A stretch of 64,000 nt of DNA, taken from the IMG/VR virus record IMGVR_UViG_3300020048_000118; one strand, given 5' to 3'. Shown piece by piece: positions 14,601 through 63,534 of the stretch (position 1 is the stretch's first letter; every line of letters starts with the position of its first letter). The notes beneath the pieces were generated by a model. The model was given only the letters and a program-made list of their open reading frames with translations, was not told where the DNA came from and did no database searches. Source of the stretch: an uncultured virus (IMG/VR IMGVR_UViG_3300020048_000118) (lineage: Duplodnaviria; Heunggongvirae; Uroviricota; Caudoviricetes; Crassvirales). The translations under genes and the position numbers were made by a program.

Positions 14601-17600
14601 TTGACGCTTCCTTGATCTTGTCCATGTACTCGGCGCTTTGGAATACCCTAGACATGTAATCAACAAAACGGTCACGCATTACAGGGTTCAAGATATTCAT
14701 CTTGTCGTATCGAGAGATAATGGCAGTTGCCTGTCTAGCAGACATCATACCACGGCCAACCATAGACTTCAACCTACCAGAGATGTCCATGCGGAGCTGC
14801 TTTACAAAGGCTGCAGAGTCCTTGGCTGCCTTGGCCTCCAACTTGATCTGATCCTTCAATGCTGTGCTCTCTTTTACGGTAACCTGCTTCACGTCCTTTA
14901 TCTGGCCCATGATCTTGGCTACGGATGGAGCGGTCTTAAACTTCTCTCCTCTGATCTTCTTGAAGTCACGGATGATCTGCTCACGCTGAGAGTCGTCTGC
15001 TTTTTCATAAACAGATGACTTCTGAATGTAGTCAACTGCGTTAGCGCTTGTTTGATTATAAGACCTGCCTCTGTTGATGCTCTTGTCCATGATACCCTCG
15101 ACCTCGTTCATCATTCTGTCGTATCCAGGGATGGTCTTTACCTCTACCTTCTGAGAGCGAGTTGTAACAGACGGCTTGGCCTTCTCGATCATTGTGATCT
15201 TGTAGCTTGTATATGGTGACAACGTGAACTTGCCCGTATCAAATCTTCCGAAGTCGTTTTGGGATTCATACGAAAGGACGTCCCCATCAACAGCTACAAT
15301 AGTAGCATATCTTCCATACAAGAAGACTTCATCGCCTACCTCAAATACCACGGGCTCTGGCTTCTTGAAACCAGTATACTCTGCCTCTGGCTTTAATGCC
15401 TTGGTAGTCTGCGCACGGTAACTATTAGGGCCTCCCCAGTTTGTAACTAGCATGTCGTACCCATTCTCTCCGGCAACCTTGGTCACCCAAGCTGCAGAGT
15501 TGTTTGCGTCAAACGCATACTTTGTTGGCCTGTCCTCGTTTCCACGGTTCCTATAGGCCTGGAATCTTTGTCTTGCCTCTTCCTCGAATCCTTCTGGATC
15601 GTGAGATACTTTTCCTTTTTCTGTGCTTCCGTAGAAGTATACCTTGTCCTTTGGAACTAGAACTGTGTGTGCAACATTCCCAACACCGCTCTCTTTCTGG
15701 CCGGCCTTTGTGTAGTACATCGCAACACCACCTACGGCAGATATCGCAGATACCTCTTCACGGCTTGTGAAGTTGCTCTTAGATCCTGACATTGGCTTGA
15801 TCACGTCTCTATTCTCGTCAGAGTAGTGAACGAAAAGGTAGTTGCCCTTGCCGTCATCGGTAAGAACCTCGTCTACTACTTTTGGTACATTCTTCTGTGA
15901 GCGTGATTCCACTACCTTGGTCTCTAGATCTAAGCCTGGCTCAAGCTTCTTTGCGGTCTTCATGAAACCTTCTGAGGCGTAAGATGCCTTTTCTATAGCA
16001 CCCATCTTCTCATAAAGTCTTTTCTCAAAGTCCCACATTCTTTCTTGAACGTCAGACGGGCTAATATTTAATTTCTTAGCAACTGATTCCCAAGCCTGAT
16101 CTGCAAGTTTTCTTTTCTTCACACCAGCAACAGTGCCAGCTGCCCATGGGTCTGTCATGGCCTTGCCATCTTTTGTCAATGGCTCGCCAACTAGTCTTGC
16201 CATTGTTCTGGCGTACCACATGTCCTTGGTAACCGTAGAGTACTCTCCGATTCGGTTAAGGATATAAGAGCCTAGCTTGGCTCCAGTAAATCCAAAGATA
16301 CCAAAACCACCGTCTTCCTTGCTCAAGTTCTCGTGAGGAGTAAGAGCCTTAGTCCCTTTTAATGGAGTACCCATTACTTCGGATATCTCTTCGTAAGAGT
16401 GGATAGATGTCATCCATTCCATAGCCTTTTCAACATCTCCTTCAAAATGAGATATCATGGCCTTCATTTTATTCAAAGAAGGTACAGCGTAGTGCATTGA
16501 GACTTGAGAGTAAATAGGATTTCCCTCTTTGTCAAACTTTAATTTACCTGTATCTACTTTCTTTCCTTTGTCGTTTAATTCATATATAGTAGCTTGCTTG
16601 TCAGCATAACCAGATAGTTTATTTACATCTGGCTTTCCACCATTCATGTACTTGTCGAATATCTCAAGACCCTTACTAGAGTCAAACATAGGATCTGCCT
16701 GTGGAGATGCAAATCCGCTGACAGCATGGTAAAGAGTTACCTCGCCTGGAGTCAACATCCTTCCGTATCTAGCCTCTGCGAATTTTTGCAATTTAGGATT
16801 AAGGCGATCTACGATATCTCCAACATAGAAGCTTACGTAGTCCTGACCACGAACGCCATCCCAAGCTGCCAACTCTTTCAATGTATGAGACTCGAGTTTC
16901 TTTACAAACTCTTGATCAGATACATCCTTTATGTCTTTTGCAAATATTTTATTCTTCTTAGACCAACCCTCAAGCCAATTGGCTATCTCTGGAAGGGTCT
17001 TGAATGTAGGTACCTTTTCTTCTCCTGTAAATATTTTCTCGGCCTGCTTTCTAGATGTCACGCCTTCCTTTGCCTTTGCCTTCTCTCCTTTTCTAAAGAA
17101 GCTTGACACGTCCTCTCCCTTAGCAACCTTCTCAGAGATGGTCACCATGAACCCAAGGATGTCCTCTGGGGTGGCCTGATCTAAGAACTGCTTCTTGCCA
17201 GTGAACAACTCAGCAAACTTGTTGATGATGTCACCGATCTTCTGTAGCAATGTCTTTTGTTGAGCCGTTAGTGGTCCCTTTCCGAAACCAGCTTCTACCA
17301 ACATACCTCCAAGCTCAGCCATGTACTCCGAGTATTTTACGGCTTCGTATCCCTTCTGGCTAGCAAATGCGTCCAACGCATCAGCGATATCAGCAAACCC
17401 TTGAGCCCTTAGTTGAGAGTCAATGCCCGCTGTAAACTCCTTGAACTTAGCTTGGTCGTTACCGAACGCATCGTTCAGCATTACTTCCCATGCCTCGTGT
17501 CCTGCGGTACGGCTATCTGCAGTAGTCTTGTCGAATACCACAGCGAACGGCTTTCCGTCAACAAAGATCGTCTGACCCTTGGTGCCGGTAGCAAATTCTT

Positions 17601-59155: not shown

Positions 59156-59743
59156 TTATAAATCTTTACTCTCGATCAATGTGTACGTGAAGCTGTTCCC
59201 ATGCATCTTGGCCGATTTCTCGACAATAACCATGAATGCAGCGAAATCTTTTATTCTCTTGAACACTTGGCATCCATGCGACCATTCGCCAATAAGGACG
59301 GAGTCCGCTCCAGCATGGTGGATATTGATACCATCAAGGTTGCTGTCAACGATCTTGTCTGTGTCGTACTCTAGATCCTTGTCGGCGTCCCTGTACAAGC
59401 GTAGCTTTCCCTTCTGCTTCAACGCACGGTACTTGCCTTGGTGTAGTCCAATCATGTGGCTACCCGGATATTGTCCCGGCACAACTCTCGCAGTTCCTCG
59501 TCCGTTATTTCCACGAAGCATTGGATCCTTTCCTGGGTCCGTGGTCGCAGACCAACTGAAGAACTTCCATACACCGCCGTCCTTGTAAGAGATCGTCATC
59601 CAATCGTCAAAAGCGTTAGTAACTGCGTTACCAACAGTTGAATTTCTGATACCAATAATGTTGACGTTGAAGTCTCCATTCTCAAAATACTTGTGACCCA
59701 ATTTATAGCAAGCAGCCATGACGGTCTCTCTTGTTAGCTCCAT
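59156..59743 (-). CDS. YkuD/L,D-transpeptidase-like cell-wall enzyme, possible endolysin
   Basis: ATTDPG and GINIHHAG...WSHGCQV (H...S-x-G-C catalytic motif). Confidence 0.65.
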   Translation of the reverse strand: MELTRETVMAACYKLGHKYFENGDFNVNIIGIRNSTVGNAVTNAFDDWMTISYKDGGVWKFFSWSATTDPGKDPMLRGNNGRGTARVVPGQYPGSHMIGLHQGKYRALKQKGKLRLYRDADKDLEYDTDKIVDSNLDGINIHHAGADSVLIGEWSHGCQVFKRIKDFAAFMVIVEKSAKMHGNSFTYTLIESKDL

Positions 59744-60016: not shown

Positions 60017-60040
60017 AAAAAGAGCTTTTTAGGGCTCTTT
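60015..60040 (-). terminator. Intrinsic terminator
   Basis: AAAGAGC/GCTCTTT stem plus T-run. Confidence 0.65.
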
Positions 60041-60062
60041 TAATTAAGGTGGTCGAATTTTA

Positions 60063-60236
60063 CTACTTACCGCAGCTGCCTTTCACCTTCATGTTGTCCT
60101 TCATCTTCGATGCCATTGTCATGGCTTCTGCCATCATCATGGTCTTTTTCATCTGCTTCATCTGTGACTTGGCCTCGGCCATTTTAGCAATGCCAGACAT
60201 CTGTGGTGGCATCGGATTGTTTAGTGGTTTCTTCAT
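60063..60236 (-). CDS. Small Met/Lys-rich protein (57 aa)
   Basis: Hand-translated MKKPLNNPMPPQMSGIAKMAEAKSQMKQMKKTMMMAEAM...; TATCTTTG at 60241-60248. Confidence 0.65.
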   Translation of the reverse strand: MKKPLNNPMPPQMSGIAKMAEAKSQMKQMKKTMMMAEAMTMASKMKDNMKVKGSCGK

Positions 60237-60252
60237 AATGCAAAGATAGGGA

Positions 60253-60387
60253 CTACCACATGAACGTGATACGGAAGAAAAGTAAGTTTATGTCGATCTC
60301 GTTTGTCTCTCCGGGGTAGTTAGACTCAAAGTACTCGATCCCAAGTAAGATCGCGTCCGGTACAAGTAATGATATTTCTATAGCCAT
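60253..60387 (-). CDS. Small hypothetical protein (44 aa, MAIEISLLVPDAILLGIEY...ITFMW)
   Basis: Hand-translated; TATATTTG at 60392-60399. Confidence 0.6.
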   Translation of the reverse strand: MAIEISLLVPDAILLGIEYFESNYPGETNEIDINLLFFRITFMW

Positions 60388-60840
60388 GTGGCAAATATAG
60401 ATATAAGGCGCCAGACTTATAAGTGCCAATTATCAACCTACAGGTTAATAATCGACCATGTGGTTTATACCTATGAGTATAATACCAGGAACTAGATATG
60501 CTGAGGTTTTGGGTAATACCCCCATATTGCGTCACGCCGGCCGCGGGGAAAACCGATTATTTTTGCCCCATGGGTTGTCGGTGTGTCGGCCTTGCCCCAA
60601 ATTTTTGGCCTTTTGCCCGTGCGCTCCGCATGGGCTAACAGCCCGCCCGCTCCCTAGGTGGGCGCCCCGTCATGCTAAGGAAACTGCGGAAACGCTCAGA
60701 GTTTCCATTACACCCCGCACATGGTCGCATCATGAATCTGCCATCTGTAAGGCCTTGATAGTCACTTGCGATAATCCGTACAAGGTTTTCAAATCAGTTG
60801 CGAAAATCCGTAAACAAAGTTGAAAATAAATGTTGACATG

Positions 60841-60872
60841 TTTGGTGTTGTCAACAATCGGTCGTAACATTG
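60841..60872 (+). promoter_or_regulatory. Early promoter P1: TTTG-N20-TAACATTG
   Basis: Bacteroidota -33/-7 architecture; same architecture at 61664 and 63503. Confidence 0.7.
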
Positions 60873-60896
60873 TATTGTAATAAAACACAAACGGAT

Positions 60897-61163
60897 ATGA
60901 TAAACTACAGCAAATTGATGAGCCACAACCCTACCTCTTATGGGGTAATGATGAACGACAAAGGACAGCAGATTGAGTTCTTCGAGCACCCAACATTGGG
61001 AGACGAGAGCGACATCATCTGCGCTTGCCACGAACTACAAGTAGCCGATTACTCGGGCTTCTACGAGACTGACGACATGATTGCTGAGCACGGCGAATAT
61101 CAGCCATGGTTCAACGAGGACGGCCAGTTGCAAATGGGAGAACTTGGGAGCCCAAACGAATAA
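60897..61163 (+). CDS. Early acidic hypothetical protein
   Basis: ATG 60897 after P1; FFEHPTLGDES motif. Confidence 0.7.
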   Translation: MINYSKLMSHNPTSYGVMMNDKGQQIEFFEHPTLGDESDIICACHELQVADYSGFYETDDMIAEHGEYQPWFNEDGQLQMGELGSPNE

Positions 61164-61230
61164 GGTTAACTGACGAGTCCTAAATGGACGAAACATGGGT
61201 GAGCATAGCGAACTCATCCATGTCTTAACC
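61164..61230 (+). ncRNA. Hammerhead ribozyme, type I (HHR1)
   Basis: Stem I GGTTAA/TTAACC; core CTGACGA; stem II GTCC-TAAAT-GGAC; GAAA; stem III ACATGGGTGAG...CTCATCCATGT; GTC cleavage triplet at 61222-61224. Confidence 0.92.
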
Positions 61231-61244
61231 AAAACAACAACGAT

Positions 61245-61463
61245 ATGAACAACAATCAAAAATCATCAGCAGACCACATCATCGAGCAACTAAAGTCAAT
61301 TGACATTGATGGAGAGACAATGGAGTACATCATCAACGGAGTTGGCATGAGTTATCAAATGCTAAGACAATTGATAATAAATTCAAGCGACTTTGACATC
61401 AACAACATCATCTCAGAGAGGGATGAAATTCACGACCAAGGAAGAAACAAGCATTTAGGTTAA
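61245..61463 (+). CDS. Early hypothetical protein flanked by two hammerheads
   Basis: 72-aa ORF; its stop TAA is part of HHR2 stem I. Confidence 0.7.
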   Translation: MNNNQKSSADHIIEQLKSIDIDGETMEYIINGVGMSYQMLRQLIINSSDFDINNIISERDEIHDQGRNKHLG

Positions 61464-61511
61464 CTGATGAGGTCTTAATGACCGAAACGGGGCTCACGCC
61501 CCGTCTTAACC
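61458..61511 (+). ncRNA. Hammerhead ribozyme, type I (HHR2)
   Basis: Stem I GGTTAA/TTAACC; core CTGATGA; stem II GGTC-TTAAT-GACC; GAAA; stem III ACGGGGC-TCAC-GCCCCGT; GTC at 61503-61505. Confidence 0.93.
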
Positions 61512-61524
61512 AAAAAACATAGAC

Positions 61525-61653
61525 ATGAAATATTACATCCAAGACAACATCGACGAAACGAGAATGCCCGTAGTGTTCGACAACCACAGCGACGCGCTCG
61601 ACTACATTTTCGACAATGACCTAACAATGACTCACGAAATAATTGCAGAATAA
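61525..61653 (+). CDS. Early small acidic protein (42 aa, MKYYIQDNIDETRMPVVF...)
   Basis: Hand-translated; A-rich leader after HHR2. Confidence 0.6.
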   Translation: MKYYIQDNIDETRMPVVFDNHSDALDYIFDNDLTMTHEIIAE

Positions 61654-61663
61654 CGAAAATAAA

Positions 61664-61695
61664 TTTGCATAATACGTATATTATAACTAACATTG
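61664..61695 (+). promoter_or_regulatory. Early promoter P2: TTTG-N20-TAACATTG
   Basis: Same architecture as P1. Confidence 0.7.
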
Positions 61696-61718
61696 TGAAC
61701 ACTTTAATAACAAACGAC

Positions 61719-62435
61719 ATGAATACACCACAAACCCTCATCGCACACTTGCGTAACGCTGAAACAAACCACATCGGTTTCTCTTACAACATCAACACGG
61801 GCGACCACAACCCCGACCAAGGCTTCATGGTATCTATCAAGGGATACGAGGAGACGGCTCCAAGTGGTTGCGACCTTATCGCATTCGGTAGGTCTTACTT
61901 CTTGCGCCATGCCGAGCATTTGGCCAACCCGAACTACTACATGGGATGTTGGGTCAATGCGGGACGATTTGTCTTTGACATCTCAGAGAACGTACAGACC
62001 AAGGAGGTCGCCATCGTTCTAGGACAGCACCATGACCAAGAGGCCATATGGGACTGCGCTAGTGGGTCAGAGTACAGATTAATGAGAGAGGGAGACGAGC
62101 CAAGCCAAAGGCTCGAGGAGTTGAGAGAGGCTCTTAGGTCTGAGTCAATTAGTTATGGCGAACTTGCAGAACTTCAGTCATTGTCAGAGCACATCGACAA
62201 GGACGACGTAGAATTGCTATTTGCCTCGGGGCTTGCAGAGTTCGAGTCAGACGAGAAGTCATTGGGCGACTACACAGATGCCGACTTCGATGCCATGCTA
62301 CACACATTGGACGTGGCGATGGACGAGTTCTCTCAAATCTACAACCACTCAGCCTCGAACGACTTCCGAGAGTACTACGAGATTCACATGACCCAATTGG
62401 ACAACATCATCAACCTAATCAACAAACTAAAATAA
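61719..62435 (+). CDS. Early protein with possible SAM-lyase-like N-terminal domain and acidic C-terminus
   Basis: GCWV...FDIS...AIVLGQHHDQEAIWD; start reassigned to 61719. Confidence 0.5.
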   Translation: MNTPQTLIAHLRNAETNHIGFSYNINTGDHNPDQGFMVSIKGYEETAPSGCDLIAFGRSYFLRHAEHLANPNYYMGCWVNAGRFVFDISENVQTKEVAIVLGQHHDQEAIWDCASGSEYRLMREGDEPSQRLEELREALRSESISYGELAELQSLSEHIDKDDVELLFASGLAEFESDEKSLGDYTDADFDAMLHTLDVAMDEFSQIYNHSASNDFREYYEIHMTQLDNIINLINKLK

Positions 62436-62749: not shown

Positions 62750-62793
62750 CCAATAAAGGAAACGAGAGGGGTTCAATTCCCCTCATTGGTTCA
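62748..62793 (+). ncRNA. tRNA-like element (acceptor-like stem plus T-arm)
   Basis: AACCAAT/ATTGGTT 7-bp stem stacked on GAGGGG-TTCAATT-CCCCTC T-arm. Confidence 0.55.
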
Positions 62794-62811
62794 AATTAAA
62801 ATCAAATAGAC

Positions 62812-63502: not shown

Positions 63503-63534
63503 TTAGGTTATACACAAGATAGTAACTAATATTG
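63503..63534 (+). promoter_or_regulatory. Early promoter P3: TTAG-N20-TAATATTG
   Basis: Variant of P1/P2 with identical spacing. Confidence 0.55.

Follow-up and report, generated by a model that had tools for sequence, protein, structure and literature searches.

We analysed a stretch of 64,000 nucleotides (nt) of DNA from an uncultured virus (IMG/VR record IMGVR_UViG_3300020048_000118), hereafter the window, in which two hammerhead ribozyme motifs, HH1 and HH2, lie a few hundred nt apart on the plus strand. By protein family matches the window is phage DNA, with a large terminase subunit, a portal protein, a tail-fibre protein of 2272 amino acids (aa), a GroEL-type chaperonin and replication genes. 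The minus-strand late genes stop near position 59743 and are followed by about 1.1 kilobases (kb) with few convincing open reading frames (ORFs). From 60897 small ORFs without a known function follow one another in a row on the plus strand; we take them to be early genes, and both hammerheads stand within this row. The positions of all the features considered here are collected in Table 1.

Table 1. Hammerhead motifs, reading frames, putative promoters and other elements of the plus-strand gene row (window positions; bp, base pairs)
Feature	Position	Strand	Remarks
HH1, type I hammerhead	61163..61231	+	predicted cut between C61224 and U61225
HH2, type I hammerhead	61457..61512	+	predicted cut between C61505 and U61506
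First early ORF	60897..61163	+	88 aa from ATG; the last base of the UAA stop at 61161-61163 is the conserved A preceding HH1
Predicted 5′ leader of the ORF72 mRNA	61225..61244	+	5′-OH UUAACC, then 14 A-rich nt up to the AUG
ORF72 (72 aa)	61245..61463	+	between both ribozymes; its UAA (61461-61463) is the last three bases of the HH2 stem I 5′ strand
42-aa ORF after HH2	61525..61653	+	AUG 13 nt past UUAACC
P1, putative promoter-like site	60841..60872	+	TTTG, 20-nt spacer, TAACATTG; 25 nt ahead of the ATG of the first ORF
P2, putative promoter-like site	61664..61695	+	TTTG, 20-nt spacer, TAACATTG; precedes the 238-aa ORF starting at 61719
Third putative promoter-like site	63503-63534	+	same geometry; precedes an ATG at about 63538
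tRNA-like minihelix	62748-62792	+	in the gene gap 62750-62811 of the same early row

The two hammerhead motifs

Both motifs have the catalytic core of a hammerhead, that is C3-U4-G5-A6-N7-G8-A9, G12-A13-A14, the A15.1-U16.1 pair and a base other than G at position 17 (H17). In both, stems II and III are closed by hairpin loops and stem I is open, which is the type I topology. Precisely, stem I of HH1 pairs GGUUAA (61164-61169) with UUAACC (61225-61230) and is flanked by A61163 and A61231; the core CUGACGA occupies 61170-61176, GAA 61190-61192, and C17 is base 61224. Its stem II is GUCC/GGAC (61177-61180 with 61186-61189) with the loop UAAAU, and its stem III has 11 bp (61193-61203 with 61213-61223). 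HH2 repeats the same stem I (61458-61463 with 61506-61511, flanked by A61457 and A61512), with core CUGAUGA at 61464-61470, GAA at 61484-61486 and C17 at 61505. In this case stem II is GGUC/GACC (61471-61474 with 61480-61483) with the loop UUAAU, and stem III has 7 bp (61487-61493 with 61498-61504).

A generic hammerhead scanner, which requires the core, GAAA, the A-U pair, a base other than G at position 17 and minimum helix lengths, was run on both strands of the 64 kb and returned HH1 and HH2 and no others. As a control, we produced 200 dinucleotide-preserving shuffles of the window, for which the mean was 0.015 hits per window, with one hit in 3 of the 200 and two hits in none. We also searched with a family covariance model (described below), whose training set included the window's own HH1 and HH2; with filters off it scored HH2 at 77.9 bits and HH1 at 72.8 bits, the next-best position of the window having 10.3 bits. 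When HH1 and HH2 were folded singly, both the minimum-energy and the centroid fold were the hammerhead secondary structure, with z values of -4.0 and -3.8.

Judged by these features, HH1 and HH2 are genuine type I hammerheads, for which self-cleavage is predicted. A first-pass annotation of this DNA had reported two complete type I hammerheads with the same stem I, and sequence, scanner, shuffles and covariance model confirm them in these positions. The cuts that it predicted after 61224 and 61505, as well as the 281-nt piece between them (61225-61505), which contains the whole of ORF72 with its leader, follow directly from the sequence. The GC-rich stem III hairpins were considered as terminators too, and this candidate was rejected, because a terminator scan found none at either ribozyme and no U-run comes after them.

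Covariation and extent of the family

To collect related sequences without any assumption about RNA, we started from the neighbouring 256-aa ORF and obtained seven related viral contigs (L001-L007). Together these contain 16 further hammerheads, each locus having between 1 and 4, and every copy lies on the gene strand and has GGUUAA/UUAACC as its stem I. These 16 sequences were aligned with the two of the window. In the resulting 18-sequence alignment 302 of the 302 pair cells are standard pairs, and double compensatory changes are found at 9 of the 17 pairs with none broken; when the 3′ partners were slid by 1-3 columns as a control, just 27-43% of the cells were paired. All 18 sequences keep the core positions, where only N7 varies and H17 is either C or A, and the G10.1-C11.1 pair at the base of stem II is G-C in 18 of 18. 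Stem I is invariant within this alignment. Stem II is found as GUCC/GGAC, GGUC/GACC, GACU/AGUC, GUCU/AGAC and GGAU/AUCC, and the versions of stems II and III occur in differing combinations. These comparative data argue for selection on the RNA fold, which the first-pass annotation had proposed and which the fully paired cells and the compensatory changes bear out.

A strict pattern, in which any base was allowed at N7 and G was excluded at H17, was then scanned over viral contigs and gave at least 128 further stretches. The 156 unique copies matched by the pattern have any of the four bases at N7 (T 78, C 58, A 14, G 6) and either C (116) or A (40) at H17, where the pattern itself excludes G; their stem II is found in more than 25 complementary versions. 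An A stands on either side of stem I in 99% of 163 contexts, and loop II nearly always consists of 5 nt in a U-N-N-N-U frame. A stem I of 6 bp, a stem II of 4 bp with a 5-nt loop and the conserved flanking A's would fit a tertiary contact of stem I with loop II, of the kind that makes hammerheads cleave fast at cellular Mg2+.

With the covariance model, which was built from the 18 aligned sequences, we obtained 124 hits distributed over 87 loci, 115 of them having AGGUUAA/UUAACCA. The other 9 hits include compensatory variants of stem I (GAUUAA/UUAAUC, GUUAUA/UAUAAC and GGUCUA/UAGAUC), and the cultured Flavobacterium phage elemoB has the same architecture with stem I GGCAAA/UUUGUC (45 bits, E-value 5.5e-9). 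Since such compensatory variants exist, stem I is a real helix, strongly but not absolutely fixed. In elemoB (vB_FspP_elemoB_14-3B, NC_062741.1; cultured with Flavobacterium sp. BAL314) the hammerhead lies at 17212-17271 of the record, and in our locus L162 (2493-2556) the annotated GTG start of gp69 falls inside its stem III (locus position 2535); the true start of gp69 is probably downstream of the ribozyme.

As regards the hosts, the strict pattern was found in 8 stretches of prokaryote assemblies, 4 of which are labelled as Bacteroidota (uncultured Bacteroidetes, Agriterribacter, Pedobacter and Paraflavitalea), and this agrees with a Bacteroidota host. The terminase of the window is 68.5% identical to that of the uncultured podovirus MW202828.1 and about 42% identical to that of Flavobacterium phage elemo; the other records matching it, Cellulophaga phages among them, are below 60% identity. 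Taken as sequences, these motifs form a large hammerhead family of uncultured phages that probably infect Bacteroidota. In complete relatives the hammerheads gather in one short region, with 3 of them inside 0.9 kb of a 65-kb record and 7 in a terminal stretch of 5 kb of an 82.7-kb record.

Gene boundaries and predicted processing of the early transcript

For the layout counts we considered 164 distinct contexts, in which the upstream frame was the longest one of at least 40 codons and the downstream AUG had to open at least 30 codons. In 129 of the 164 contexts the upstream frame terminates between -6 and +10 relative to the start of the ribozyme, and for 98 of these 129 the ribozyme itself provides the stop codon, that is the UAA in stem I (46), the UGA of the CUGA core (27) or a UAG across A-1/G+1 (25). 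The remaining contexts have either no frame of at least 40 codons (20) or a stop further downstream (15). On the other side, an AUG is found 12-18 nt past UUAACC in 128 of the 164 contexts, the distances in the window being 14 nt for HH1 and 13 nt for HH2. The leaders after UUAACC are A-rich and G-poor, with no G-rich block like that of Shine-Dalgarno (SD) sequences. Read from this layout, the predicted ribozymes are compact gene spacers, with an unusually regular succession of stop, ribozyme, leader and start.

The three promoter-like sites of the early region share TTTG or TTAG, a 20-nt spacer and TAAYATTG, 25-30 nt ahead of ATGs. TAAYATTG has 13 occurrences in the window versus 5.59 expected, those of the early region being at 60865, 61688 and 63527. 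The sites resemble what we take to be the -33/-7 promoter type of Bacteroidota; a sigma-70 promoter scan of the window gave 11 sites versus 8.2 expected and thus says little. Their positions suggest at least three early transcription units, and on that reading both ribozymes would belong to the first one.

The motifs of the window thus stand in a family that covaries, keeps a fixed register to stop and start codons and, as described below, sits at mosaic breakpoints. We consider it quite probable that HH1 and HH2 are self-cleaving punctuation of the early transcript between genes. As the polymerase passes, each motif of about 55-70 nt would fold locally and cut after its C17 (C61224 and C61505), and the cuts would split the multi-gene early RNA into single-gene mRNAs. 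The upstream piece would end in the two hairpins of the ribozyme with a 2′,3′-cyclic phosphate, and the downstream piece would start with 5′-OH UUAACCA and an unstructured A-rich leader, about 19-24 nt up to the AUG, which the weak 6-bp stem I (-4.1 kcal/mol) would then set free. The likely benefit would be insulation, with the translation start and the decay of each gene independent of its neighbours. Cassettes could therefore pass from one phage to another with no retuning of expression. Self-processing of the earliest transcript had been put forward already in the first-pass annotation, as a weaker form of its proposal, and with the comparative data it is the best-supported reading.

A reading that overlaps with punctuation gives the main role to translation. 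According to it, cleavage would mainly switch translation on, the leader being freed from stem I for ribosome loading, and the SD-poor ribosomes of Bacteroidota would load efficiently on a free A-rich 5′ end. The fixed spacing of the AUG after UUAACC, the conserved A that follows UUAACC and the composition of the leader would all suit such a switch, as would the minihelix described in the next section, which leaves a similar leader of 20 nt. An analogue is given by eukaryotic RNA viruses, for which one report (PMC13725137) describes hammerhead self-cleavage in the 5′ untranslated region as essential for translation. However, both the host and its mode of initiation are drawn from relatives of the phage, and since promoter-proximal genes have similar leaders with no ribozyme, a short leader alone may suffice. 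We consider a main role as a translation switch possible but rather unlikely, and the same holds for the efficient loading of SD-poor ribosomes on the free 5′ end.

The related loci are mosaic. The window is colinear with L002 (90%) and L004 (91%) up to a point within HH1 and again from the following promoter-like site onwards; the genes between differ. HH1 with its leader is 90.9% identical to a copy in L001, the genes on both its sides being unrelated, and over the related loci the hammerheads vary in number (1-4) and the genes between them differ. In L002 (3055-4003) and L007 (137-889), a hammerhead and a new 5′ coding segment lie inside the region matching window positions 61719-62435, giving two ORFs, the first of which ends on the stem I UAA, versus the single 238/256-aa ORF of the window. 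Either a ribozyme cassette has split the gene in these relatives, or the single ORF is a fusion that arose when the cassette was lost. Since homology breaks at hammerheads, these mark cassette boundaries.

Such breaks could also be produced if the elements acted mainly as DNA-level linkers, whose short identical sequences would promote recombination among co-infecting phages, with the RNA activity being secondary. The promoter-early stem-loop repeats of T4-type phages can be likened to such linkers. In the family studied here, the breaks inside or beside hammerheads, the nearly identical HH1 and leader amid unrelated genes, the hammerhead that splits the match to a window gene in L002 and L007 and the different combinations of stem II and stem III versions all speak for this. 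We nevertheless regard it as improbable, because every base of the catalytic core is kept and pairing is kept through compensatory changes. Moreover, G-U pairs, which are mismatches on the other strand, do occur (4 at one stem III position), all the copies are on the coding strand of their gene row, and the invariant blocks, of 6-13 nt, are short for homologous recombination.

The first-pass annotation had gone further than processing and proposed that the phage could make a circular coding RNA. In this case the 5′-OH UUAACC end of the 281-nt RNA would dock on GGUUAA of HH2 and be joined to the 2′,3′-cyclic phosphate, by the reverse reaction or by a host ligase of the RtcB type, into a circular translatable ORF72 mRNA. 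The ends left by a hammerhead (5′-OH and 2′,3′-cyclic phosphate) chemically suit ligation, and the released piece carries the whole of ORF72 and its leader. HH1 and HH2 agree in the 3′ strand of stem I and in the four bases after it, so that joining 61505 to 61225 would restore HH2. The claim that end joining rebuilds a hammerhead is therefore true by sequence, but it is trivial, because with AGGUUAA/UUAACCA shared by 115 of the 124 model hits it fits almost any pair of the family. By the same token, with one near-universal stem I the 5′-OH UUAACC of any cassette could dock on the GGUUAA of any ribozyme and any cassette could circularise.

Against the circle, a complete relative (G002) has one hammerhead in 68 kb, and for 68 of the 80 listed pattern loci the strict pattern matched once within 600 nt. 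There are also hammerheads next to one another whose stem I strands would not form pairs between them (L013, L015/L016 and L022), and the relatives of ORF72, 47-68% identical in 14 viral contigs, have no hammerhead within 1.5 kb. The docking helix has -4.1 kcal/mol and a predicted probability of about 0 for the 5′ end with GGUUAA, which counts for little because the cis stem I is likewise underrated by this model. HH1 and HH2 have different stems II and III; they are no copies of a single unit such as those of viroids or retrozymes, to whose circles the first-pass annotation had likened the rebuilt junction. Besides, Perreault et al. 2011 looked for circular or spliced RNA from their clustered prophage hammerheads and reported none (PMC3088659). 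The single-hammerhead relative, the unpairable neighbours and the ORF72 homologues lacking a hammerhead leave a circular coding RNA as the purpose of the pair unsupported, and we consider the ORF72 circle highly improbable. We judge in the same way, as very unlikely, the more general outcome of circular translatable single-gene mRNAs, or of an RNA-level re-joining of cassettes in new orders through the reverse reaction or RtcB. In the literature on phage hammerheads and circular RNA, of which few subscription journals were covered, we found neither this family nor natural circular mRNAs of phages described.

Coming back to punctuation of the early transcript, a number of points weigh against it. 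MW202828.1, the closest named relative, has no family copy by either the covariance model or the generic scanner, so the elements are dispensable for this phage type. The Infernal search with Rfam hammerhead models, which the first-pass annotation had suggested as a check, gave no match at the gathering threshold (Rfam 15) in the window or in 20 related loci. In E-value mode HH1 scored 25.5 bits on RF00163 Hammerhead_1 (cut-off 34) and 27.0 on RF03152 RAGATH-1-hammerhead (cut-off 56.3), and HH2 scored 16 bits on RF02275 HH9 (cut-off 52). Since these scores fall below the cut-offs, HH1 and HH2 are hammerheads by their defining features but lie outside the current Rfam models. Part of the near-invariance of stem I over the loci obtained with the pattern comes from the pattern itself, and 13 of the 156 unique pattern matches have no four contiguous stem II pairs as parsed.

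Folding of the longer RNA weighs on the same side. In an 800-nt transcript at equilibrium, the pair probability of stem I is 0.30 for HH1 and 0.008 for HH2. The segment 61262-61276, in the early part of ORF72, pairs with the 5′ strand and core of HH2 (61458-61470) at -14.9 kcal/mol; 0 of 500 shuffles gave a pairing as strong, and it dominates the predicted equilibrium fold. Because of this competing upstream segment and of the low stem I probability, HH2 could be slow or conditional. Over 168 family contexts an upstream inhibitory pairing was not enriched (11 at p ≤ 0.05 and 5 at p ≤ 0.01), and the pairing modelled here may be due to chance or be a feature of this one phage that attenuates HH2.

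Known systems and neighbouring features

In phage T7, host RNase III sites between the early genes cut the transcript into single-gene mRNAs ending in a 3′ hairpin. T7 relies in this way on a host enzyme, whereas by analogy the RNA described here would cut itself and leave 5′-OH and cyclic-phosphate ends. Among engineered systems, RiboJ is a hammerhead placed before a gene, where it standardises the 5′ leader, and in Tornado two ribozymes flank a product whose ends are joined by RtcB into a circle. RiboJ is thus the counterpart of leader standardisation and Tornado that of the circle idea; a natural phage counterpart of a Tornado-type circle is not known.

Natural precedents are described in Perreault et al. 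2011 (PMC3088659), where clustered hammerheads flank prophage genes and the role proposed for them is to cut long phage RNAs into mRNAs of one gene each. The clustered prophage hammerheads cleaved native transcripts of about 2 kb in vitro and one set cleaved in E. coli; spliced or circular products were raised there and neither was detected. As far as these clusters are described, the present family is like them in having several close hammerheads that flank single small genes of varying identity. It differs from them in its type I topology, its nearly constant stem I (A-GGUUAA...UUAACC-A), its stem II of 4 bp and its loop II of 5 nt (U-N-N-N-U), as well as in keeping a fixed register with stop and AUG and in scoring below the Rfam gathering thresholds. 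The supplementary files of PMC3088659 other than the alignment Dataset S1 had no match to the stem I string, and the present sequences may already be included in Dataset S1. The same source describes an element called HHphage in the haloviruses HF1 and HF2, which lies 13 nt upstream of an early-gene start and for which a mapped 5′ end falls within 3 nt of the cut. That element is a high-salt hammerhead with a variant core, present in single copy in an archaeal virus, whereas the copies described here have canonical cores and are arrayed.

In comparison with the Rfam families, the motifs are like RF03152 and RF00163 in their type I topology and short stem I, and stem II and loop of HH1 closely match the RF00163 consensus. 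They are unlike RAGATH-1 (RF03152) in that its extra 5′ hairpin is not formed here, the pairs being non-standard, and unlike RF00163 in that their stem III is much longer.

Gene-flanking phage hammerheads have been known since 2011 and the present elements are an ordinary example of that arrangement. What appears to go beyond it, judging from the pattern and model searches, is a large subfamily that Rfam does not capture and that is common in phages. According to a 2019 review (PMC6765202), what ribozymes do in multi-gene transcripts calls for further study. With at least 128 viral stretches, a strict register to stop and start and a place at cassette boundaries, the family is a clean case for what phage hammerheads do. 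A variant is present in a cultured Flavobacterium phage, and therefore cleavage, insulation and effects on translation are directly testable.

A second candidate processing element lies further along the same early row. The tRNA-like minihelix (Table 1) consists of a 7-bp acceptor-like stem (AACCAAU/AUUGGUU), an 11-nt linker and a T-arm (GAGGGG-UUCAAUU-CCCCUC) followed by C. The element shares 2 nt with the stop codon upstream of it, and 20 nt separate it from the AUG that follows. Relatives carry it once (L001 4069-4111, L002 4535-4578, L003 4749-4792 and L007 1468-1511) or twice (L005 4122-4165 and 5672-5717; L006 3769-3812 and 5499-5544). The acceptor stem is found in four versions, all fully paired, with AACCACG/CGUGGUU in four relatives and UCCCAAG/CUUGGGA in two. 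A 7-bp acceptor-like stem on a T-arm with a UUCRANN loop is thus kept by covariation, as for a processing element. ARAGORN calls no tRNA at this position and the element is not a full tRNA; it is likely to be a processing site for host RNase P or RNase Z. It shares the geometry of an abutting stop and a 20-nt leader, which points to a general processing layout between genes.

With regard to the neighbouring ORFs, Pfam and PHROGs gave no informative function for the early ORFs, and a blastn search of 60800-62000 against named phages matched nothing. The 88-aa ORF matches phrog_11770, of unknown function (E-value 8.4e-12), and has copies 94-99% identical in two related contigs, with a hammerhead directly 3′ of each. 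ORF72 has neither a Pfam nor a PHROG match, and the 42-aa ORF after HH2 has a weak match to phrog_11909 (E-value 3.5e-4).

Between the late and the early gene blocks there is a minus-strand ORF at 60063-60236 (57 aa, rich in Met, Lys and Ala) with no family match, followed by a terminator-like hairpin with a U-run at 60018-60041 on the same strand. No credible ORF is found in the next region, 60250-60820 (about 570 nt), which is GC-rich in part (60520-60720) and 70-90% conserved in relatives. RNAalifold, run on five sequences for the ORF-free part 60420-60830, gave local hairpins and no convincing global structure, with an unfavourable covariation term (+4.08). The region holds strongly conserved blocks, such as the GGAAACUGCGGAAACGCUCAGAGUUUCC hairpin near 60680-60707, and could be a regulatory region, an origin region or a non-coding RNA.

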